The translations under genes and the position numbers were made by a program. A stretch of 64,000 nt of DNA from Chitinophaga pinensis (lineage in GTDB: Bacteria > Bacteroidota > Bacteroidia > Chitinophagales > Chitinophagaceae). Where the stretch lies: contig CALRKF020000002.1 of the NCBI GenBank assembly GCA_943367825.1, forward strand, positions 54,249-118,248, read 5' to 3'. The notes beneath the pieces were generated by a model. The model searched no databases. It saw nothing but the letters and a program-made list of their open reading frames with translations, and had not been told where the DNA came from. Shown here piece by piece: positions 10,200-61,822 of this stretch; positions within the stretch are counted from its first letter, which is position 1, and the number at the start of each line of letters is the position of its first letter.

Positions 10200-11645
10200 A
10201 TGATGCATTTAAAGAAAATATTTTGCGGTTGCTGTTTACTGCTTTTTTGCATTACAGGTTTTACACAAATTACTTATAATACCGACAGTCTTACACTGAA
10301 TAGTCATCTGCATGTACGCAATATCATCATCAAAGGGAATAAAAACACAAAGACTTATCTGATTGAGCGCGAAATGCAACTAAAAAGAAATGACTCCATT
10401 CCTGCCATCAAACTAATTGATGCATTAAAACTGGCCAAACAACTTATTTATAATACCTCTTTATTTACCGAGGTAAAAGTGGATGTAAGTGTGGTAACAG
10501 CCTATGATATCGATTTAATAGTAGAAGTAAAAGAACGTTGGTATATTTTTCCAGTTCCCCAGTTTCAGTTAATTGATCGCAACCTAAATGACTGGATAAA
10601 AACCTTTAATGCCAGTCTGAGCAGGGTGAACTATGGATTAAAATTCGTTCACTATAATCTAAGTGGAAGAAGAGATCAATTGCGCATCTTCCTATTGAAT
10701 GGTTATAGCCGCAATTTCTCTTTCAGCTACACAGCCCCTTATAGCAATTCGGCTCTCACAGAGGGATTCACTATCGGTGCAGGCTATACGCAAAATAGAG
10801 AAATCTCCTACAAGACCGATTACAACAATAAGGTATTGTTTTATCCGGTAGATTCTATCCGCAAAGAAGTAGGCGATTTTGTAAGAAATGGATTTAATAT
10901 AAACGCTGCTTATTCCATTAGACGAGGATATTACAGAAAGCATAATTTTTACTTTAACTACAATTATTTAAAAGTATATGACTCAATAGTAACCAATAAA
11001 TTCAACCCCAATTACTTTAATGAACCTACGAATGCCAAAGGGTTTGTAGACTTATCTTACGCTTATCAATACCTTAATGTCAACAATGTGGCATACCCTT
11101 TAAAAGGAACGGCTTTTGGCTATGGCATATCTAAAAGGGGCCTTCGATTTACTGGCAGTATCAATTCACTTTCCATTAATGGTAATTTTAGCAAGTTTTA
11201 TGACCTTGGCAAATTTTGGTATAGTAGTTTTCAATTATCTGGCTCGGTAAAAGTTCCCTTTCGCCAAGCCTATATCAATCAACGAGGGCTTGGTTATGGT
11301 GATACCTATCTCCGGGGATTAGAATACTATGTGATTGATGGAATAGTAACGGGACTGGCAAAAACAACGCTAAAATATAAATTACTTCAGTTTAAAATCC
11401 CTTTCCCTTTTAAATCAAAATCGCATCCCTACATTCCTTTCACTTTTTTCGCTAAAACCTTTGGTGACTTAGGTTACTGTTTTAATAAAAATGAATTTAA
11501 GGCATCACTCAATAATAAATTATTATACTCAGGCGGAATTGGCATCGACTTACTTACATTATATGATGTAAATCTACGATTTGAATACAGTTTTAACCAA
11601 TTAGGAGAAAAGGGTTTATTTTTACATACACAGGGCGGGTTTTAA
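10200..11645 (+). CDS. Omp85 (BamA/TamA-like) outer-membrane protein with one POTRA domain
   Basis: Signal peptide, POTRA (IIIKGNKNTKTYLIEREM..LFTEV..VKERWY), Tyr/Gly-rich beta strands, LRGLEYYVIDG (VRGY-like) and terminal Phe. Start may be 10197, 10200 or 10203. Confidence 0.8.
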   Translation: MMHLKKIFCGCCLLLFCITGFTQITYNTDSLTLNSHLHVRNIIIKGNKNTKTYLIEREMQLKRNDSIPAIKLIDALKLAKQLIYNTSLFTEVKVDVSVVTAYDIDLIVEVKERWYIFPVPQFQLIDRNLNDWIKTFNASLSRVNYGLKFVHYNLSGRRDQLRIFLLNGYSRNFSFSYTAPYSNSALTEGFTIGAGYTQNREISYKTDYNNKVLFYPVDSIRKEVGDFVRNGFNINAAYSIRRGYYRKHNFYFNYNYLKVYDSIVTNKFNPNYFNEPTNAKGFVDLSYAYQYLNVNNVAYPLKGTAFGYGISKRGLRFTGSINSLSINGNFSKFYDLGKFWYSSFQLSGSVKVPFRQAYINQRGLGYGDTYLRGLEYYVIDGIVTGLAKTTLKYKLLQFKIPFPFKSKSHPYIPFTFFAKTFGDLGYCFNKNEFKASLNNKLLYSGGIGIDLLTLYDVNLRFEYSFNQLGEKGLFLHTQGGF

Positions 11646-11679
11646 AATCAAATATAATTAGCAGAAAAGGATATAGTTT

Positions 11680-12558
11680 ATGAAAATTGCAATCTATAGC
11701 AGGGGCATTGAAAACAATCAGCAAAACGACATGCAATTGTTATTAGAAGAACTGGCTGCGCATAAGATTGAACCTGTTTTTTATCAGGACTTTTTCAATC
11801 AATTCTATTCAGCCTTCAATATTACACAAAAATATTCCACCTTCAATTCCTATGAAGACTTGGATGAAAGCATTGACAGCATTATAAGTTTGGGTGGTGA
11901 TGGCACTTTACTAGACACGGTAACACTTGTAAGGGATAAAGGCACTCCTGTACTCGGTATTAATTATGGAAGGCTTGGATTTCTTGCCAGTATTGGTAAA
12001 GAAGAATTAAAAAATGCAATCACTGCTTTAGTCAACAGAACTTTTGTAACAGATAAAAGATCATTGATACACCTCGATGCCAATATGCCTTTATTCGGCG
12101 AAACGCCTTATGCCTTGAATGAATTTTCTTTACACAAAAAGGACTCCTCTCCTATGATAAAAATCCATACTTATCTGAATGGTGAGTTCTTGAATTCTTA
12201 TTGGGCAGACGGCCTCATAGTTGCTACCCCTACCGGTAGTACAGGTTATTCATTGAGTTGTCAGGGGCCAGTTATTTTTCCCGATAATGAGTGTTTTGTT
12301 ATTACACCTGTATCACCACACAATTTAAATATCCGGCCCATTGTAGTACCAGACAGTAATATCATCTCATTCGAAATTGAGGGCAGAACAGATGGATTTC
12401 TTTGTACCTTGGATAGTCGCAGAGAAATTGTAACCAAAGAAATACAGTTGGCCGTAAAAAAAGAAAACTTTGGAATCAACCTGATTCGCCTGAATGAAAA
12501 TAATTTTTTACAAACACTCCGTAACAAATTGAGTTGGGGATTGGACAAAAGAAATTAA
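11680..12558 (+). CDS. nadK: NAD kinase
   Basis: GGDGT, GINYGRLGFL, ALNE, DGLIVATPTGSTGYSLS and LSWGLDKRN. Confidence 0.96.
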   Translation: MKIAIYSRGIENNQQNDMQLLLEELAAHKIEPVFYQDFFNQFYSAFNITQKYSTFNSYEDLDESIDSIISLGGDGTLLDTVTLVRDKGTPVLGINYGRLGFLASIGKEELKNAITALVNRTFVTDKRSLIHLDANMPLFGETPYALNEFSLHKKDSSPMIKIHTYLNGEFLNSYWADGLIVATPTGSTGYSLSCQGPVIFPDNECFVITPVSPHNLNIRPIVVPDSNIISFEIEGRTDGFLCTLDSRREIVTKEIQLAVKKENFGINLIRLNENNFLQTLRNKLSWGLDKRN

Positions 12559-54267: not shown

Positions 54268-54825
54268 TTATTTGAGATGACGTAAATCCAAGGAAGGATC
54301 CTGCCCCTTAATTTCAGTGAAAAACGCAAGAATCGATTGCATGTCCGCTTCCTCAGAATCGCCAGGCCAGCAGGGGCTACCTATACGTAATAACTTATTT
54401 TCAAAATCGAGTCCAATTGGTACGATGGGCACTTTTGCGGCTTTTGCGATATAATAAAAACCTGACTTTAATTTGTCTACTTTTTTCCTTGTTCCCTCCG
54501 GTGCAATCCCTACAATAAATCGTTCATTTGCTTCAAAAGCAGCTGCAACCTGACTAACCATTCCATGCTTACTCGATCTATCTACGGGTGTGCCACCTAA
54601 CCATTTGAATAACCAACCAAATGGACCATCAAACAACTCTTTTTTCCCAACAAATTTTGCGTGGTGAATATTTAAGGCATTTCTAGCAGCAAATCCTACC
54701 AGTATATCTTTCCAACTAGTATGAGGGCCCACAGCCAAAACCATTTTTTTATACTCATAAGGGAAAGAACCAGCTATTTTCCATCCTGATAATTTCCAAT
54801 ACAATTTCCAAAACAAGCGAAGCAT
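54268..54825 (-). CDS. 1-acyl-sn-glycerol-3-phosphate acyltransferase family
   Basis: PHTSWKD (HX4D), GGTPVDR and PEGTR. Confidence 0.92.
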   Translation of the reverse strand: MLRLFWKLYWKLSGWKIAGSFPYEYKKMVLAVGPHTSWKDILVGFAARNALNIHHAKFVGKKELFDGPFGWLFKWLGGTPVDRSSKHGMVSQVAAAFEANERFIVGIAPEGTRKKVDKLKSGFYYIAKAAKVPIVPIGLDFENKLLRIGSPCWPGDSEEADMQSILAFFTEIKGQDPSLDLRHLK

Positions 54826-54879
54826 ATGGTAAGTTAAGTATAAACTAGGAATTGGTTTGATTAAAAAAATGGCTAGAGA

Positions 54880-57414
54880 CTACCTCCCATTATATTGACT
54901 AATCAATGTGTTTACTGATACCCTTACTTCTTTATTTGCCTCAGTATTGGGCAATAATTGAAGGTATTTTTGTAAATATTGTGTAGCTCTATTGACCTGA
55001 CCCATTTTATATTCTAGCAAACCAGCGTATAAATATACGATAGGCCAATCAGATGGATTTTCTTTTTCAATTAGGGTCTTAGCATAATTGCAGATTTGAA
55101 GCGCTGTAGTATAGGAGGTTTCTGGGTTAACCTGCTCAATCGCTTTTTGTACTGCTGCTAAGTAGAAATTGATATAATATGCATGCAAAATCGGATGATC
55201 TATTGATTTTGCATAATCAAACAGCACTTTATTATGATCTAATATGGTAGCAATGAATTGCTGATCCAATTGGCGATACATTCCAGTTGAAAAGAGCATT
55301 CTTTCTTCAGTTGTATCCAACCTTACACCATTACCAATCAATAAGCTAGCAGTTTTGCAATTTCTTTCAGCAAGAATTGGTGCTGTCTCTTTATTTTCTA
55401 TATACCGGTGAAGTACAGTTTTTATCAGGCTAATGGAGTCCCCAGTTTCTATAGCATAAGAATTGGCATTTAAATCCAGCCCAGCATTAATCAACAGTTC
55501 GATAAGGATTGGATCAATTGAAGATTTACAAATGACATGAGCAAATGTTTCACCAAATGGATTTCTACTATTAGGATCTGCGCCATTTTCCAACATAAAT
55601 GACAGCAAGGAAGCCTTGGCATTATCCTCAATAACATTATTTCCAACCAAAAAAATAACTGGATCTCTTCCTTCTATTGTAGCATTGATATCAGCACCTT
55701 GTTCTACTAATAAATCCAATATGCTGGAATCTTTTTGATTTATGATAGCTGCTTCCAATAAAGTTTGCTGCAAAGTATCCTTCACATTAACCTTGGCTCC
55801 ATATTGAAAAAGCAAAGCCATTCTTTGTAAACTTTCTTCAGTAGGTAAATCCAGGGCCCGAAATAGCGGCGGTTGTCCTTCGCTATTTTTCGCATTGGGA
55901 TCTGCACCATAAATTAACAAGAGCCTAACGGCTTCTTCGGATCCAAATGAAATTGCGCTATGAAGCAATGGGTTTTTATTTTCATCCAGCATATTTGGAT
56001 CCAAATCTTTTTGTAATCTTTTATATAAAGCAACTGTATCATTCATCTCAATTAGCTGCAATGGACTTGCTGCTCCTGTGATAGTAAAACCTGCACTATA
56101 CATTTCATTGCCATCTAGTAATAGTTTAACGGTATACTTGCCCGGATAAAAAGCACCAGCTTTTTTATCGCCGCAAGAAAAACGCACCACCTGTTTGATA
56201 ATGCCGGGTTTATATTTCAATAGTTGAACATCCCCAATAAAAGTTCTGCCATTTTCATGATACCAATTCAGCATTATCTCATGATCCTGTTGCTGTGCTT
56301 TATTTTCATTTTGTATTACAAGTTCACAGGAAATAAATCTCGTGACTTTTTTATCAAAGCTCGACGCAAATGCTTTTTTAGCATAAGCAGGCGGACCCGT
56401 TTCGTAAAAATTAGCACTTATTACTTTGAATGGTATTATTGGCCTAGCCACTGACTGAGTTCCTATTGCACTATTTTCCCTAATACGCCCAATATGATTT
56501 ACCATTGCCAACCCTAGTGTACCTTCGAAAAAAATATAAAGTTTGTCGTTTTGATAGGCCAGAGAATTGCCTGCATTGTTTAAAAAATGTATGGTAGTTC
56601 GATTATAGTAACTCGTAGAATAATCAGTGGAATAGTATATTCCACCCTGTTCATCCATTAGTATTTGCACAATTTCGGCATTCGGATATACGGGAACAGG
56701 CATGGGCAGGGTATCCTTTACCGACATACTCAACATTGTATTTCCAATAGCCAAAAAATGCTGGTATCCGTTACCGGTAGCTGCAGTTATTTTTTCCTTA
56801 GAAGTATACACTTTCCTAAACCCCCAGGAATTAGATGTATACTCTGGCGTTAAGCTATCGATGGCAGATTGAAGTACGTATACCGCATAACATACATTTG
56901 CCGAATCATACCCTATTAAATATAAGCTATTATTCAAGCCTTTACTCATATGGCAATTCGACATGGGCAAAGCACTAATAGGCTGAAACATTACTACCTG
57001 ACTATCCACTTTAAAAGAAGTGGTGATTGGTAACAGAATACCCAATTCATTTTCTGTTGTTATAAAAAGGCTTCCATTATCGGAATGAACCATATCTACA
57101 GGCGAGGCAGAAATTAAAAATCGATACCCTTTTACAGGATTCATAATATGATTTTGCTGATACAGAATCCAGGGGTCACCCATTTTGTCAATTGAAAATT
57201 TAATCTTAGTAGCATTTCCCCTAATATTTGTTACTCTTTCTTCCTGCAAAGGAGGAAGCACCCAGCTAACATTAATTAAACTATCCTTTTCCGGCAAAAT
57301 GAGCGTGGCGCCTGCTAATAGGTCTTCTATCTTAGTTTTTTGGGCATGTACTGGGCTACTGATCAACATAACCACCATTAGCATTACTAGCAATATAGAA
57401 TTAGATTTTATCAT
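54880..57414 (-). CDS. Large exported protein: beta-propeller-like + Ig-like + about 6 ankyrin repeats + terminal TPR-like helix pair
   Basis: Signal ending VHA-Q; xDxxGxL(Y/W)I blade motifs; GADPN/GADIN ankyrin repeats with PLLH.A-type starts; YAGLLEYKMGQ..A.QYLQKYL. Confidence 0.75.
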   Translation of the reverse strand: MIKSNSILLVMLMVVMLISSPVHAQKTKIEDLLAGATLILPEKDSLINVSWVLPPLQEERVTNIRGNATKIKFSIDKMGDPWILYQQNHIMNPVKGYRFLISASPVDMVHSDNGSLFITTENELGILLPITTSFKVDSQVVMFQPISALPMSNCHMSKGLNNSLYLIGYDSANVCYAVYVLQSAIDSLTPEYTSNSWGFRKVYTSKEKITAATGNGYQHFLAIGNTMLSMSVKDTLPMPVPVYPNAEIVQILMDEQGGIYYSTDYSTSYYNRTTIHFLNNAGNSLAYQNDKLYIFFEGTLGLAMVNHIGRIRENSAIGTQSVARPIIPFKVISANFYETGPPAYAKKAFASSFDKKVTRFISCELVIQNENKAQQQDHEIMLNWYHENGRTFIGDVQLLKYKPGIIKQVVRFSCGDKKAGAFYPGKYTVKLLLDGNEMYSAGFTITGAASPLQLIEMNDTVALYKRLQKDLDPNMLDENKNPLLHSAISFGSEEAVRLLLIYGADPNAKNSEGQPPLFRALDLPTEESLQRMALLFQYGAKVNVKDTLQQTLLEAAIINQKDSSILDLLVEQGADINATIEGRDPVIFLVGNNVIEDNAKASLLSFMLENGADPNSRNPFGETFAHVICKSSIDPILIELLINAGLDLNANSYAIETGDSISLIKTVLHRYIENKETAPILAERNCKTASLLIGNGVRLDTTEERMLFSTGMYRQLDQQFIATILDHNKVLFDYAKSIDHPILHAYYINFYLAAVQKAIEQVNPETSYTTALQICNYAKTLIEKENPSDWPIVYLYAGLLEYKMGQVNRATQYLQKYLQLLPNTEANKEVRVSVNTLISQYNGR

Positions 57415-58868
57415 TGTTCAATTCGCATCCATTTTTTAAATGCCGTATGACCAGTATTCAAATCATCCATTGTTTTAAATGTTTCAGTACGCATCTGCCC
57501 ACCTAATCCGTTGACCGATTTGGCAGTTTCTTCCATAAACTTATTGATGGTTTGCAGGAAAATATGGGAATAAATCCGGCCCCCATCTACAGCAATTCTA
57601 CTCTGTGGGGTAGTAATAAAACCAATCGCATAGTCAGCAGCTTCGGCCCTGGTAGCTGCAGCTCCTTCCGTAAAGGCTGTATAAGGAATTTTTACAAAAG
57701 CCAGAAATTGACTAAAATGTTCGCCGGCTTCTTCTCCCATTCTGCGTTGTACAAATTTTTCCATTTTATATTCCATCAACTGCTGACTTTTATCACTATT
57801 GTATTCACTCATCATTCCCAGCATTCTTGTTTGTCCGGGTATTAAGCTCAGTTCCTTTTTATTATTAATGGGAGGTACCATCATTTTCCATGCTTTCAAT
57901 TTTTCAGTTGGCACGGTATGGTATTCAGGTGAATTGGCCGTTAGGGAAGCCGTATATAATTTCAAACGCAATGAAGCTCTTTCATCAGCTGTAAGGCCAG
58001 GTATACTGATAGCCTTTTCCCATAATCGATTACGCTTAATAATTAGTTCATCCAACAGTTTGATATCTTTACCGGGTATTGGCCATTCTGTTTGAATCTT
58101 GTCAATAGCAGCTTGCATTTCACGTGCCTGCACCCATTCCTCTTCTGTTAATCCCCCTACATGTATGCCTGTTCCAGCAGCAGCAAAATATTGGGTAGCG
58201 GGAGGAACTACATTATTTGCTGGTAAGTAACTAGTTGAACTTGACCCAGCAATTTTACCTGCCCGATTAATCAATTGCAGCATGGCTAATTTGTCATCAT
58301 AAAACTTCCGTTGTTTTTCTGCTGCCATTTTTTTAAGTTCTGCTGCCCTTCTTCTCTCTTCCTCTTGTCGCAGCATTTCTAAACGTGCATTTTCAACCAA
58401 GGCTTTTGCGTTGGCCAGATTATTCTCAGCATTTTTTAAATTTTGTCTGATTACGCCATCGCTAGGAGATTTTTTTAATGCTTGTTTAAAATATTTGATG
58501 GCTGATTCCCAATCACGCTGATTGTATTTATTGATACCTAACTGGTTTAGTTCCCTTGCCCTTGTCAATCGCTGCTCAGCGATAGCTTCTTTTCTGGCTT
58601 GTATCCAGTTGTAACCGGAATTATTGCTACTACTACTGCTATTCTTGGAATAGGGACAACTAGAAGAATGCCCAGACCCACAGGGATAATTGCAATAAGC
58701 ACAAGCACATTGTGGAGTTGGGATTTGGGCATTTGCAGCTTGGTAAAATAGCAATTGAAAGCCAGTTAAAAAAAGGATTAAAATTATTCCCTTCCATTGT
58801 GGAGTGAAATAAAGTATCGAAAATTGATTTTTCGACTCATCGGTTTTAAAGCAAGCTGTAACTTTCAT
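57411..58868 (-). CDS. Exported TPR/coiled-coil protein with N-terminal Cys/His cluster
   Basis: Hydrophobic signal ending ANA-Q, CACAYCNYPCGSGHSSSC, Ser/Asn linker, TPR (GINKYNQRDWESAIKYFKQALKKSP) and charged coiled coil. Overlaps the next gene by 4 nt (ATGA). Confidence 0.75.
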   Translation of the reverse strand: MKVTACFKTDESKNQFSILYFTPQWKGIILILFLTGFQLLFYQAANAQIPTPQCACAYCNYPCGSGHSSSCPYSKNSSSSSNNSGYNWIQARKEAIAEQRLTRARELNQLGINKYNQRDWESAIKYFKQALKKSPSDGVIRQNLKNAENNLANAKALVENARLEMLRQEEERRRAAELKKMAAEKQRKFYDDKLAMLQLINRAGKIAGSSSTSYLPANNVVPPATQYFAAAGTGIHVGGLTEEEWVQAREMQAAIDKIQTEWPIPGKDIKLLDELIIKRNRLWEKAISIPGLTADERASLRLKLYTASLTANSPEYHTVPTEKLKAWKMMVPPINNKKELSLIPGQTRMLGMMSEYNSDKSQQLMEYKMEKFVQRRMGEEAGEHFSQFLAFVKIPYTAFTEGAAATRAEAADYAIGFITTPQSRIAVDGGRIYSHIFLQTINKFMEETAKSVNGLGGQMRTETFKTMDDLNTGHTAFKKWMRIEQ

Positions 58869-58969
58869 AGTCAACCTAATATAGCATTACAGCGTATCTA
58901 TCCAACACATACTGCTGCAATCACTAAATAATACTATAAATATAAACTGAATTGAGTGCTGTAAAAACA

Positions 58970-58982
58970 TGATTCTTATCAA
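58970..58982. promoter_or_regulatory. FNR-like box TGATtcttATCAA in the divergent TPR/iorA intergenic region
   Basis: One mismatch from TTGAT-N4-ATCAA. Confidence 0.45.
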
Positions 58983-59068
58983 CTATTTCATTTCGCTTAC
59001 GATTCTATTCAATAATTATATCAGTCTGAAATATCCTGCACCAGTAACTGTTTACACATTACCGAATA

Positions 59069-59098
59069 TTTGTAAATCGAAAAAAAATACTATCTTTC
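59069..59098 (+). promoter_or_regulatory. iorAB-like operon promoter (-33 TTTG, -7 TATCTTTC)
   Basis: TTTG at 59069-72, 18-nt spacer, near-consensus -7 at 59091-98. Confidence 0.45.
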
Positions 59099-59134
59099 TA
59101 TGTCACCCCAATTCAGTAGACCAAAACAACTGTT

Positions 59135-59599
59135 ATGTCCAGTTATACCATTGAAGTCAATACAAAATCTTATACGGTAGAAGCCGATGCAGCTATGCCC
59201 CTATTGTGGGTACTCCGGGATTTACTAAACCTTACCGGTACCAAATATGGATGCGGTGTAGCCAGTTGTGGAGCCTGCACTGTAATGCTTGATGGCAAGG
59301 CTGCCTTTGCTTGTCAGCGACCAATTTCAAAATGTGTAGGCAAAAAAATAACGACCATTGAAGGGCTATCGGAAGATGGATCACATCCCGTACAAAAAGC
59401 CTGGCAAAAAGCAGGTGTACCACAATGCGGCTATTGTCAACCAGGCCAAATGATGGCCGCCGCCGCCTTGCTTCAAAATAATAAAAAACCAAATGAAGAG
59501 GAGATAAAGGAAGCAATGAGTGAAAATTTATGCCGCTGCGGAACCTATCACCGTATTAAGGAAGCCATTCATTATGCCATTGAAGAAATCAATCAATAA
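59135..59599 (+). CDS. (2Fe-2S) subunit of a xanthine-oxidase-family enzyme (isoquinoline oxidoreductase alpha-like)
   Basis: [25 protein letters not shown] and NLCRCGTY. Confidence 0.95.
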
Positions 59600-59614
59600 A
59601 CCAGCCTTATCATC

Positions 59615-61822
59615 ATGAAGAAAGCAATAATTGACCGCAGACAATTCATCAAATTGGGTTCATTTGCGTCCGGAGGATTGGCCATTGGCTTCTTATTACC
59701 GGGCCTTCCAGCGCTGGCAGGCAGTCCTTTTGATTGTGAGTTTTTTCAACCCAATGCCTATTTGAAAATAGATAAAAAAGGCAAGGTTACCATTTTTGTT
59801 GCCAAACAGGAATCGGGGCAAGGTGTTGACACCGCACTTCCCATGATTGTAGCAGAAGAATTGGAAGTAGATTTTAAAAATGTAACTGTTGCTATTGCAC
59901 CCTACGGAACATTAACAGAGGGTGCACATGATACGGGTGGTAGTCAAAGTGTAATGACACTTTACAATACACTCCGACAAGCAGGCGCCATAGCCAAAAC
60001 AATGCTCATCAGCGCAGCGGCGGCTGTTTGGAAAATAAAGGAATCTTCCTGTGCTGCAGACAATGGTGAAGTGGTAAACACCATCACCATGCAGCGCATC
60101 AAATATGGAGCGCTGGTTTGCCAAGCAGCATTGTTACCTGTTCCAAAAGAAGTGGCTTTAAAAAATCCGAAAGATTTCAAAATCATAGGGAAATCTGAAA
60201 AAAGAGCCAACCTAAAAGACATCCTTACTGGCAAAACGAAATATGGTATCGATACAAAAGTAGAGGGCATGGTATATGCTGTTGCAGAAAGATGCCCCGT
60301 ACTGGATGGCAAACTCATTAGCGTGGATGATAGCGCTGCATTGAAAATACCCGGAGTATTAAAAGTAGTCAGCTATGAAGGTACGGGAGCACCCATGCAT
60401 GTTCGTGCAGGCGTTGCCGTTATTGCAGTCAATACCTGGACAGCCATCAAGGCAAGAAAATTATTGAAAATTGTTTGGGACGAAGGCGCACATAATAAGG
60501 AAAATACAGATGCCCTATTTGCGCAATTCAAGGATAAGGCAAACCAACCACCACAGTATGAAACCTATACCAAGGGTAAAGTGGAATCCGTTAAAGGCAA
60601 TAAGGAAATCACTGCTGCTTATGCAGCGCCCTTTTTAGCACACGCCACCATTGAGCCTATGAATTTTATAGCTGCTGTAAAGGGAGATCAATGTGAACTT
60701 TGGGGTGGATTACAATTACCAGATTGGGCAGTTAATACCATTGCGTCCGATTTTGGTTTTAAAAAAGAAAACATTAAAATGAACCTTACCCTTATGGGAG
60801 GAGCATTTGGTCGCAGGTTGCATTTTGAATTTGCCATGGAAGCAGTAAAGATTGCTAAACAAATAGACAAACCTGTTCAACTTGTATGGGAAAGAACTGA
60901 TGATACTAAGTTTTCCCCATACCGACCTGCCAATTATCATTTTTTAAAAGCAACCATAGATGATCAATGCAATGTACTGGCTTGGCAACACCATGTGCTG
61001 GGTACTCCTGTAGCCACTATGACGGAAGGGCCTAATACCAAAAATGCCCCGGAAATGAGTGGACTTGACAAGAGTTTCTGCTACGATTTCCCCAATATAA
61101 AAACTGGTTATACAGGACTTGAATTTAACATTAACCGTGGTTGGTTAAGGGCAGTGGATATTTGCGCCAATACTTTTCCTGTAGAATGTTTTATTGATGA
61201 AATTGCCACTATTTGTAAGAAAGATCCTCTTGCATATCGGTTATCCTTACTCGAAAATAGGCCAGATTTTAAAACAGGCGATGACCCCGCTGCTATCGTA
61301 CAATCTCCCGCTAGAATTGCCGGGGTATTAAAATTAGCTGCAGAAAAAATAGGATGGGAAAATTCCCGCAGTCCTAATCATTTTATAGGACTGGCTACCC
61401 ATAGTTTTGTTTTTGCAAAAGCCTATGCTGCTCATGCAATTGAAATAGAATTAGTAGGACCCAAAAAATTTAAAATCACAAGAGTGGTGGCTACAATTGA
61501 TTGTGGTCAGGTTATTAATCCAGATGGGTTACTTAACCAAATGCAAGGTGCACTGGCTTTTGGGCTATCACAAACGCTGATGGGAGAAATAACAGTAATG
61601 GATAGTCGAGTTGAGCAGGACGGCTTTTATGGCTACGAAATACTTCGATACAAAGAAATGCCACCAGTGGAAGTATATATTGTAGAAAGTAAAGAAGAAC
61701 CAGGAGGTGTTGGTGAAGTGGGCTTACCAACTGTATCACCGGCACTGTGTAACGCATTGGCCGCAGCGGGTTATCGTCCTCGCCTATTACCCATTCGAAA
61801 AGATGGCTTTACCTGGGTATAA
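59615..61822 (+). CDS. Molybdopterin-binding subunit (isoquinoline oxidoreductase beta-like) with Tat signal
   Basis: DRRQFIK twin-arginine, ESGQG, TGGSQS, HATIEP, GGAFGRR, QMQGA and GGVGE. Confidence 0.93.
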   Translation: MKKAIIDRRQFIKLGSFASGGLAIGFLLPGLPALAGSPFDCEFFQPNAYLKIDKKGKVTIFVAKQESGQGVDTALPMIVAEELEVDFKNVTVAIAPYGTLTEGAHDTGGSQSVMTLYNTLRQAGAIAKTMLISAAAAVWKIKESSCAADNGEVVNTITMQRIKYGALVCQAALLPVPKEVALKNPKDFKIIGKSEKRANLKDILTGKTKYGIDTKVEGMVYAVAERCPVLDGKLISVDDSAALKIPGVLKVVSYEGTGAPMHVRAGVAVIAVNTWTAIKARKLLKIVWDEGAHNKENTDALFAQFKDKANQPPQYETYTKGKVESVKGNKEITAAYAAPFLAHATIEPMNFIAAVKGDQCELWGGLQLPDWAVNTIASDFGFKKENIKMNLTLMGGAFGRRLHFEFAMEAVKIAKQIDKPVQLVWERTDDTKFSPYRPANYHFLKATIDDQCNVLAWQHHVLGTPVATMTEGPNTKNAPEMSGLDKSFCYDFPNIKTGYTGLEFNINRGWLRAVDICANTFPVECFIDEIATICKKDPLAYRLSLLENRPDFKTGDDPAAIVQSPARIAGVLKLAAEKIGWENSRSPNHFIGLATHSFVFAKAYAAHAIEIELVGPKKFKITRVVATIDCGQVINPDGLLNQMQGALAFGLSQTLMGEITVMDSRVEQDGFYGYEILRYKEMPPVEVYIVESKEEPGGVGEVGLPTVSPALCNALAAAGYRPRLLPIRKDGFTWV

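Follow-up and report, generated by a model that had tools for sequence, protein, structure and literature searches.

Two overlapping genes in a 64-kb window (the whole stretch of DNA analysed) encode exported proteins whose homologues stay side by side in at least six bacterial phyla, at 20-30% identity and with every other neighbour different. Because the unit is kept over this range, the two genes clearly do something together. The best explanation, put slightly below an even balance, is that they specify an obligate exported two-protein complex serving as an accessory envelope scaffold or adaptor. The proteins would be co-produced stoichiometrically, exported by the Sec route and act as one cell-envelope complex, residing, we infer, in the periplasm. 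The mature gene 1 product would be elongated and all-helical, running from a Cys/His motif through a spacer to two conserved helical domains, the last of which (C) would dock onto the β-propeller-like N-terminal domain of gene 2. The remainder of gene 2 would be a platform for protein binding that varies by lineage (Ig-like, ankyrin and TPR-like here; PDZ in Proteobacteria and Geobacter; absent in some lineages). As a whole, the complex would bind other proteins as a strain-variable accessory and would not be enzyme-like or housekeeping-machine-like.

Gene 1 (57411..58868; the pair and all its features lie on the minus strand) encodes an exported helical 'stalk' protein of 485 aa from its ATG, with an alternative TTG start at 58874 (ORF 57411..58874). 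Gene 2 (54880..57414) encodes an exported multi-domain repeat protein of 844 aa. The gene 1 stop and gene 2 start overlap in an ATGA (57411..57414), giving translational coupling; in homologous pairs the databases' gene calls show an overlap of 4-17 nt or a gap of 13 nt. The database call for gene 2 (P0002, 832 aa) is 12 residues shorter and would cut off the n-region of the signal peptide; the ATG at 57414 was favoured because M1, N5, L9 and V10 are invariant among homologues. Downstream of the pair is a PlsC-type acyltransferase gene (54268-54825), and upstream, divergently oriented, are the [2Fe-2S] and molybdenum subunits of a xanthine-dehydrogenase/aldehyde-oxidase-family enzyme (59135-61822). 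Both the ORFs and their neighbours were confirmed as set out in the preliminary description, which had placed two ATGA-overlapping minus-strand genes between plsC and a molybdoenzyme operon. A 266-bp intergenic region (58869..59134) is common to the pair and the divergent operon and is presumed to contain the promoter of the pair; a sigma-70-type promoter scan of this region gave nothing exceeding shuffled background, and an Rfam search of it gave no match. No paralogue of either gene was found elsewhere within the window.

Sec signals were identified by reading the N-terminal sequences of both window proteins and of their homologues. The gene 1 signal peptide (residues 1-47; 58728..58868) has a long n-region, an h-region at residues 27-42 and cleavage at A-N-A↓Q48 (...LLFYQAANA↓QIPTPQC), with equivalent AxA↓Q/G sites in homologues. 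That of gene 2 (residues 1-24; 57343..57414) ends in V-H-A↓Q25 (...LISSPVHA↓QKTK) and is conserved in homologues. Gln at +1 in both proteins agrees with the Bacteroidetes 'Q-rule' (PMC5837995). A lipobox is absent, with Cys at +1 in neither protein (ANA↓Q, VHA↓Q), which rules out bacterial lipoproteins; in gene 1 no Cys occurs until 7 residues past the predicted cleavage site. Pfam and NCBIfam searches at E up to 1 found no T9SS C-terminal sorting domain (Por_Secre_tail or type-B CTD) in either protein, and T9SS cargo was ruled out on this ground. These N-termini and scans bear out the initial report of Sec-type signals ending in A-Q, lacking both a lipobox and a T9SS CTD.

Directly after IPTPQ, gene 1 carries a Cys/His cluster (C54-x-C56-x2-C59-x3-C63-x3-H67-x3-C71; 58656..58709) that is disordered in the AlphaFold2 model. 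The cluster is one case of a recurrent post-signal motif, (I/V)P(E/D)xxxPxC..., which is nearly identical in P0116 and P0076 and has variants in many gene 1 family members. A single TPR (residues 104-137; 58458..58559) was matched by Pfam TPR_2 with E 8.3e-6, at 26 bits against a cut-off of 27. Next comes a spacer, a single long helix or coiled coil (residues 138-203; 58260..58457; AlphaFold2 helix, block pLDDT 90-98). Pro-rich or Ala/Glu/Lys-rich linkers occupy the spacer position in other family members, so that in the alignments the linkers vary in nature and the ends are conserved. The cluster, TPR and coiled coil had all been listed in the preliminary description and were recovered here.

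Two conserved helical domains make up the rest of gene 1. The 'M' domain (residues ~232-305; 57954..58175) has the pattern GGLTxxEW...WP...RNxLWxKAxSxPGLTxxERxxLRLKL, with W283 and R297 at least 90% conserved in 60 sequences, and gave no match in Pfam or PDB. The 'C' domain (residues 344-485; 57414..57839) has the pattern ...PQAxxAVxGGRxY...FM...FDxxxFW..., in which the Q, R, Y, F, M, D and W positions are invariant in the alignment. This domain is the proposed point of contact with gene 2; alternatively, its conserved Q, R, Y, D and W could mark an unrecognised active site. In the AlphaFold2 model of gene 1 (mean pLDDT 78), the long helix covers residues 138-203, and residues 242-303 and 344-481 fold into all-helical domains. 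Hydropathy in a 19-residue window rises above 1.0 at window centres 24-40 only, which is the signal peptide, and beyond it no window reaches 1.0; the gene 1 product is a soluble helical protein.

The mature gene 2 protein begins with a beta-rich, propeller-like domain (residues ~40-325; 56440..57297) that is conserved in every homologue (15-sequence alignment; HMM matches in paired loci at E 1e-38 to 1e-224). Residues 25-325 are beta-rich and poorly modelled by AlphaFold2, and the domain has no relative among PDB sequences; a propeller is a plausible fold, predicted at low confidence. An Ig-like beta-sandwich follows (residues 329-446; 56077..56430; AlphaFold2 strands, block pLDDT 57-86), then ankyrin repeats forming a lineage-specific extension (residues ~450-655; 55450..56067; Pfam Ank_2 across ~460-650, E 1.5e-17) and a C-terminal helical TPR-like domain (residues 660-843; 54886..55437; model helices, weak TPR_9/TPR_2 matches at 786-829). 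All PDB profile and Foldseek matches of gene 2 were ankyrin proteins. Of the domains first sketched for gene 2, the Ig, ankyrin and TPR-like regions thus stand on Pfam and AlphaFold2, and the propeller is retained as plausible. Homologues in Proteobacteria and Geobacter have a PDZ domain close to the C-terminus. Short homologues of 332-349 aa have none of the Ig, ankyrin and TPR regions and keep their pairing; whole lineages have only this form, and a Pfam scan of two such proteins found no domain. Judged from these comparisons, the Ig/ankyrin/TPR tail is lineage-specific and not core. That gene 2 is made of protein-binding repeats was counted for the scaffold or adaptor reading; the term denotes a generic role.

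Gene 1 appeared to be an orphan by word-indexed search, and its family was revealed by a full HMMER scan. Informative related loci were gathered from both directions, via gene 1 and via gene 2, and in 35/35 a gene 1 homologue is immediately followed by a gene 2 homologue. The hosts are Bacteroidota, Gallionella, Thiobacillus, Geobacter hydrogenophilus DSM 13691, Planctomycetota/Phycisphaerales and Riflebacteria. By homology, the pair is not a chance arrangement, both proteins having homologues that keep the adjacency. With co-occurrence all but absolute in searches from either gene, the view of the two as cognate partners is supported. Distance matrices of the gene 1 core and the gene 2 propeller are correlated over 22 pairs (Mantel Pearson r 0.91, a value reached by 0/5000 permutations; Spearman 0.46); the two parts diverge alike, both sharing 20-31% identity with their window copies. 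Any tightly linked operon, a toxin-immunity pair included, would be expected to show such adjacency and co-divergence. The invariant core consists of the gene 1 M and C domains plus the gene 2 propeller-like domain. A minimal Planctomycetota gene 1 of 115 aa retains just a signal peptide and the final ~60 C-domain residues, and gene 2 still comes after it. Co-transcription of two non-interacting proteins with separate envelope roles is highly improbable, even more so than any other rival considered here, given that adjacency and coupling persist over at least six phyla while all other neighbours change. A further gene-2-like ORF is present upstream of gene 1 in a single locus, L008.

The pair is accessory, because a sister MAG whose flanking proteins are 82-96% identical has none and carries a small unrelated ORF in its place; the patchy distribution foreseen at the outset is supported by this genome. 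Plasmid, phage and viral collections gave no match.

A gene-1-like N-terminal module (signal, Cys motif, S/G linker, TPR) recurs before unrelated C-termini. P0076, P0116 and P0072 have this module with other C-termini and other downstream genes, at identities of only 30-45% (P0076 and gene 1 share 45% across residues 47-189). The genes downstream of P0076 and P0116 encode a WG protein of 18 repeats and a propeller-like protein of 300 aa, both exported beta-repeat proteins, and the gene adjoining P0072 encodes a TPR+PDZ protein.

Such an architecture, with differing partners, may resemble that of polymorphic toxins (PMC3482391), and a toxin-immunity-like pair had been proposed for these genes from the outset. 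As an effector-inhibitor pair, gene 1 would supply a novel all-helical C-terminal effector directed at the envelope or at neighbouring cells, and gene 2, produced right after it and sent to the same compartment, would bind and neutralise it. The gene order is the usual one, with the effector first and a coupled, co-directional partner directly downstream (35/35 loci), and the accessory, patchy distribution would also fit. However, Pfam and NCBIfam gave no toxin or enzyme family match and no catalytic-looking motif for gene 1, which has neither a toxin fold nor a pore-forming, membrane-grade hydrophobic hairpin, and the proposal found no positive support. The partner is a multi-domain protein of 844 aa, two of the three partners beside alternative C-termini are likewise exported beta-repeat proteins as opposed to the unrelated folds typical of immunity genes, and plasmid, phage and viral collections gave no match. 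We saw neither orphan immunity cassettes nor a nearby delivery system, and Pfam and NCBIfam scans found no T5/T6/T7/Rhs marker in the two proteins, which also lack a T9SS CTD, or in their immediate neighbours. We consider this reading unlikely.

The closest precedent for an effector with an ankyrin inhibitor is Bdellovibrio Bd3459/Bd3460, in which a Sec-exported DD-endopeptidase is followed by a periplasmic ankyrin self-protection protein that binds it in the periplasm (PMC4686830). As here, the genes are adjacent and co-directional, both products have signal peptides, and ankyrin repeats are in the second (PMC4686830). Bd3459, however, is a recognisable enzyme, and no enzyme or toxin domain is present in gene 1; Bd3460 (23 kDa) consists purely of ankyrin repeats, and these provide the interface, whereas in gene 2 the ankyrin part is dispensable and the propeller-like part is conserved. 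An ankyrin of this type as the conserved partner-binding element was rejected, since the 332-349 aa homologues stay paired. The argument that ankyrins are recurrent immunity proteins, on which the toxin-immunity proposal had leaned, is weakened because the ankyrin region is lineage-specific and missing from these propeller-only forms.

Polymorphic toxin systems whose immunity proteins are of the Imm-ank type (Zhang et al. 2012; PMC3482391) and T6SS Tle/Tli pairs in which a periplasmic ankyrin protein confers immunity (bioRxiv 10.1101/2023.03.28.534661) share with the present loci a partner directly downstream, an accessory distribution and what may be a conserved N-terminal region before alternative C-termini. 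Unlike them, the pair has no known toxin domain, dedicated secretion marker or cassette arrays, and the partner protein is exported and of very large size. Among the proteins with alternative C-termini, the N-terminal regions are only ~30-45% similar, in contrast to the near-identity left by recent cassette swapping. The putative periplasmic scaffold offered earlier as the other possibility fits better than toxin-immunity does.

Two neighbours recur beside the pair but are not universal: a small SHOCT protein with two TM segments, at 7 pair loci in Bacteroidota and Betaproteobacteria, and a metallophosphoesterase, exported or in the membrane, at 5 pair loci including Geobacter. Both are absent from the 64-kb window. 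Their recurrence, the accessory locus and the repeat-built, sensor-like proteins could suggest an envelope defence or surveillance module against phage or predators, in which the repeats would sense a foreign periplasmic protein and the complex would signal or block entry with membrane partners. This is a poor prospect: the core has no NTPase, nuclease or other effector, the window has neither accessory neighbour, and known defence genes were not seen in the annotated flanks of related loci. In PADLOC-DB, gene 1 had no match and gene 2 was matched via its ankyrin region 451-588 only; a known anti-phage defence system was rejected on these generic repeats.

It is slightly less probable again that the proteins are secreted towards eukaryotic cells (grazers or hosts), their 'eukaryote-like' repeats acting outside the bacterium. 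Ankyrin, TPR, WD40 and WG-repeat proteins do cluster in these loci, and the source was lake water. Yet Sec signals are the only ones present and provide no route through the outer membrane, the family core has no ankyrin part, and the hosts include free-living Geobacter, Gallionella and Thiobacillus.

For the envelope scaffold or adaptor, the nearest architectural parallel is the Tol-Pal system, in which TolB is a periplasmic beta-propeller, CpoB/YbgF combines a coiled coil with a TPR, and TolA and TonB have rod-like spacers. The likeness is one of architecture only (exported proteins, a coiled-coil/TPR/Pro-rich spacer, a propeller partner, side-by-side genes): neither gene 1 nor gene 2 matched TolB, CpoB, TolA, TonB or Pal in sequence or fold, and unlike Tol-Pal the pair is accessory and not housekeeping.

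The core domains (gene 1 M and C, gene 2 propeller) had no match in Pfam, NCBIfam, PADLOC, PDB sequences or Foldseek, nor did gene 1 beyond its TPR; they have no Pfam or NCBIfam model, solved relative or named member. All named homologues that were looked up are labelled 'hypothetical protein', and the earlier view that no family name explains the combination held in all five resources. 'New' here means no match to any described family or system, as distinct from a demonstrated new mechanism.

On a broader reading, possible but rather improbable, the pair would be the core of an undescribed envelope system of periplasmic conflict or surveillance modules, joining a stalk protein, a beta-repeat partner and frequent accessories. 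The exported partner would be a propeller, WG or WD40 protein, often with the two-TM SHOCT protein, a small two-Cys exported protein and the metallophosphoesterase. If so, the mature N-terminal (I/V)PExxxPxC or Cys/His motif might be a new anchoring, metal-binding or sorting signal, and the M/C domains plus propeller would represent one version among several 'head + partner' combinations that can replace one another. Defining the module yields two new domain families and a testable interaction, and experiments are feasible in the cultured strain Geobacter hydrogenophilus DSM 13691, which has the module, if genetic tools apply there. It also offers an entry point to a much larger exported set sharing the N-terminal Cys-motif/TPR module, which is present in ~90 of the best 150 matches.

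Gene 1 (57411-58868, minus strand; 485 aa from ATG, with a TTG start two codons upstream possible) and gene 2 (54880-57414, minus strand; 844 aa) have an ATGA at 57411-57414 in common, which holds the stop of the first and the start of the second. The public call of gene 2 (P0002, 832 aa) leaves out the first 12 residues encoded from the ATG at 57414 (window 57379-57414), and its start would drop the charged n-region of the signal peptide and mask the overlap. The longer form was favoured because M1, N5, L9 and V10 are conserved. Downstream of the pair lie a PlsC-type acyltransferase and then a biotin-dependent carboxylase cluster. Upstream, in divergent orientation, lie the genes for two subunits, [2Fe-2S] and molybdenum, of a xanthine-dehydrogenase/aldehyde-oxidase-family enzyme. 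The N-terminus of the molybdenum subunit (window 59615-59720), MKKAIIDRRQFIKLG..., resembles a twin-arginine (Tat) signal, and this molybdoenzyme is probably periplasmic as well.

The gene 1 signal has a long n-region, a hydrophobic core at residues 27-42 and the end A-N-A before Q48; that of gene 2 is of the textbook type and ends V-H-A before Q25. Both carry Gln at +1, as in the Bacteroidetes 'Q-rule' (PMC5837995), which agrees with the source, a Chitinophagaceae/Ferruginibacter-like bacterium from lake water. Identity as T9SS cargo or lipoproteins was ruled out, since a lipobox is absent from both proteins and neither matched a T9SS C-terminal domain in Pfam or NCBIfam. Secretion of the pair directed at eukaryotes was kept as a minor alternative.

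Immediately past the cleavage site, gene 1 carries a Cys/His cluster (Cys54/56/59/63/71 and His67), followed by a single TPR (residues 104-137). An AlphaFold2 model built with 60 homologues as input (mean pLDDT 78) placed a 66-residue helix at 138-203 and two helical domains, M and C, at 242-303 and 344-481. Gene 2 has a poorly modelled beta-rich N-terminal region (residues 25-325). A modelled beta-sandwich (329-446) comes next, then ankyrin repeats (Pfam Ank_2 E 1.5e-17) over about 450-655, and the model ends in a helical TPR-like tail (660-843). The domain content given in the preliminary description was borne out overall, with the 'propeller' of gene 2 a low-confidence assignment from a model built on three sequences. 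A profile search of the PDB for this region, using a 15-sequence alignment, gave zero matches. Foldseek with the gene 2 model returned ankyrin proteins only, because the ankyrin region dominates the model.

Word-indexed search with gene 1, also with a three-sequence profile, returned nothing besides the query protein. That gene 1 is an orphan was refuted by a full HMMER scan of 1.84 billion representatives, with 443 matches at E<=1e-3 (70 at E<=1e-10); its apparent orphan status was an artefact of the index, which coiled-coil and TPR words had overloaded. Of the best 149 matches, 59 had the M and/or C domain, with lengths of 280-585 aa. Two conserved blocks were read from the alignment, GGLTxxEW...WP...RNxLWxKAxSxPGLTxxERxxLRLKL and ...KIAxAYKxGG...DFLVGKIPxPQAxxAVEGGRxY...FMxDAM...FDxxxFW...GQKAVxEW. 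The linker between signal peptide and blocks varied freely, being TPR plus coiled coil, an Ala/Glu/Lys-rich helix or a Pro-rich rod. Pfam found only TPR or occasional weak chance matches on the M/C-domain relatives, family profiles had zero matches in the PDB, and Foldseek of the gene 1 model against PDB and BFVD gave no match past TPR. All named members looked up were labelled 'hypothetical protein'. A colicin-like or pore-forming C-terminus was ruled out, there being neither a hydrophobic hairpin nor a fold match. In one locus (L046 547-1829) two ORFs, of 293 and 118 aa, make up the gene 1 homologue; the break reflects a frameshift, a pseudogene or misassembly.

Linkage of the two genes was followed from both sides. 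The two full-length gene 2 relatives (~29% identity; the only ones in the word search) each had an overlapping gene 1 homologue immediately upstream. Gene 1-side loci were HMM-searched (contigs of four gene 1 relatives, one GTDB match, 15 JGI metagenome loci and 10 further GTDB loci), and a gene 2-family ORF directly followed the gene 1-family ORF in every one. The reciprocal gene 2-side scan yielded four genomes, with gene 1 upstream in all; a GTDB scan with a three-sequence gene 2 alignment gave zero matches, and narrower alignments gave the loci. Co-occurrence, as expected for the cognate partners first proposed, was found from both genes in 35/35 informative loci, counts that do not measure prevalence, the genome and metagenome scans relying on short exact patterns. 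One further locus (L006) was left out, as its contig stops at the gene 1 stop codon. Named hosts were a Bacteroidota MAG, Gallionella, Thiobacillus, Geobacter hydrogenophilus DSM 13691, Phycisphaerales/Planctomycetota and Riflebacteria/Ozemobacteraceae. Identity to the window copies was 20-31% for gene 1 and gene 2 alike. Distances of the gene 1 core and the gene 2 propeller were correlated over 22 pairs (Mantel Pearson r 0.91, 0/5000 permutations; Spearman 0.46). The pair is a co-produced, co-inherited, exported two-protein unit; that its proteins do not interact was weighed as a minor alternative beside this linkage. In one locus (L008 2-1867) the gene 1 homologue is directly preceded by a second gene 2-like ORF (621+ aa, truncated at the contig end), giving the order gene 2', gene 1, gene 2.

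Both proteins occur in reduced forms. Gene 2 partners in Riflebacteria-type loci are 332-349 aa and comprise the propeller-like domain alone, with zero Pfam domains in the two scanned (one such short pair is L042 9686-10864 with 10812-11810); additions are Ig, ankyrin and TPR in Bacteroidota, and ankyrin and a PDZ domain in Proteobacteria and Geobacter. The smallest gene 1, of 115 aa, was found in two Planctomycetota MAGs (L022 2167-2514 and L050 1646-1993) as a hydrophobic leader with the last ~60 C-domain residues, and gene 2 still follows it. It lies directly downstream of a putative NUDIX-like gene (by-eye reading) and is a minimal but functional version or else the remnant of a deletion. 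Since the short gene 2 and the 115-aa gene 1 are still paired, the invariant partnership is that of the gene 1 C-terminal helical domain with the gene 2 propeller. The unit thus conserves one helical C-terminal and one beta-propeller-like domain, and varies in its spacers and its classic protein-binding repeats. As the simplest mechanism, held tentatively and at somewhat less than even chances, the gene 1 C domain would dock onto the gene 2 propeller in a heteromeric envelope complex, which would serve other proteins as an accessory scaffold or adaptor.

The pair is missing from a sister MAG (CAIOIZ010000045, L029) in which flanking proteins are 82-96% identical to those of the window and gene order is the same (CoA-disulfide reductase, molybdenum subunit, FeS subunit, gap, PlsC, 182-aa protein, BCCP, biotin carboxylase), so the pair is accessory and the patchy distribution anticipated earlier holds. 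The gap between FeS subunit and PlsC (L029 9317-10000) is 685 bp vs the 4.3-kb pair slot of the window (54826-59134). No trace of the pair is present in this gap, which carries a small ORF of roughly 165 codons, cupin/DUF985-like on a by-eye reading. More distant Chitinophagaceae loci, reached via PlsC, had no pair near plsC. The site is a replacement hotspot without repeats or mobile-element marks. Mobile-element cargo was ruled out: tblastn with both genes against plasmids and phages gave zero matches, IMG/VR held no relative, no tRNA gene was present in the window, Rfam found no element around the pair, notable direct or inverted repeats were absent from its flanks, and GC content showed no compositional anomaly.

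Patchy distribution, gene order and module shuffling would also suit an effector-inhibitor pair, akin to the toxin and immunity protein of the preliminary description. This was considered unlikely, as gene 1 has neither a toxin signature nor a membrane-active segment, no delivery route other than Sec was seen, and the gene 2 partner is much larger than known immunity proteins. The immunity argument had been based on the ankyrin region, and that basis is weakened: ankyrins are optional and missing from the 332-349 aa forms. In the closest precedent, Bd3459/Bd3460, ankyrin forms the interface, whereas the ankyrin region of gene 2 is dispensable. An envelope defence or surveillance module was a minor alternative; a known defence system was rejected, PADLOC matches being limited to ankyrin repeats. 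No membership test against known kinds placed the pair, and the core domains matched nothing described by sequence or predicted fold. On these grounds the pair was rated as outside known kinds.

Neighbours of the pair differed from locus to locus and few recurred. These were a small two-TM SHOCT-domain protein (7 pair loci, Bacteroidota and Betaproteobacteria), an exported two-Cys protein of ~115 aa just downstream of gene 2 (3 loci), an exported or membrane metallophosphoesterase (5 loci, Geobacter among them) and a WD40 protein of ~930 aa (two loci); none lies within the 64-kb window. In Geobacter hydrogenophilus DSM 13691 the locus is on contig NZ_JAHCZI010000001, within 445665-466708. Just upstream of the pair (L041 6245-9488) stand a radical-SAM/SPASM enzyme, a methyltransferase and, as a separate gene, an ankyrin protein of 281 aa; the same ankyrin gene is also in Thiobacillus (L040).

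About 90 of the best 150 gene 1 matches (among P0072-P0209; loci L023-L028) had in common only the N-module and carried unrelated C-termini. This module comprises a signal peptide, a (I/V)PExxxPxC or CxxC..H..C motif, an S/G-rich linker and a particular TPR ('NxxGxxAYNxxDWxxA...PxDxxIxxNLxNA'). The proteins formed clusters, including ones of 28 and 17 members, and GGLDF repeats were present in those read whole (P0122, P0128, P0145); Pfam gave nothing besides TPR. The two closest such relatives, P0076 and P0116, have C-termini unrelated to gene 1, and the same SHOCT protein is in both loci, with the two-Cys protein also in the first. Next after P0076 comes an exported WG protein of 18 repeats, and next after P0116 a 300-aa protein aligning with the gene 2 propeller profile (hhalign probability 71%). 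In some loci (L001 1126-2184 and 6056-8827; the JGI contig of P0062; L024 9407-11632) the pair or N-module relatives have WG_beta_rep proteins (7 and 18 repeats) or WD40 proteins of ~930 aa as direct neighbours. Taken together, these arrangements hint that the window's pair is one version of a larger modular system. In a separate locus (L027 1-11320; ENA bin.30 NODE_16) seven co-directional genes for large proteins (1387+, 331, 546, 416, 509, 418 and 439 aa) stand in a row, with the N-module protein P0145 in seventh place. Pfam gave zero matches on this row, save TPR in P0145, and it may be another undescribed envelope system.
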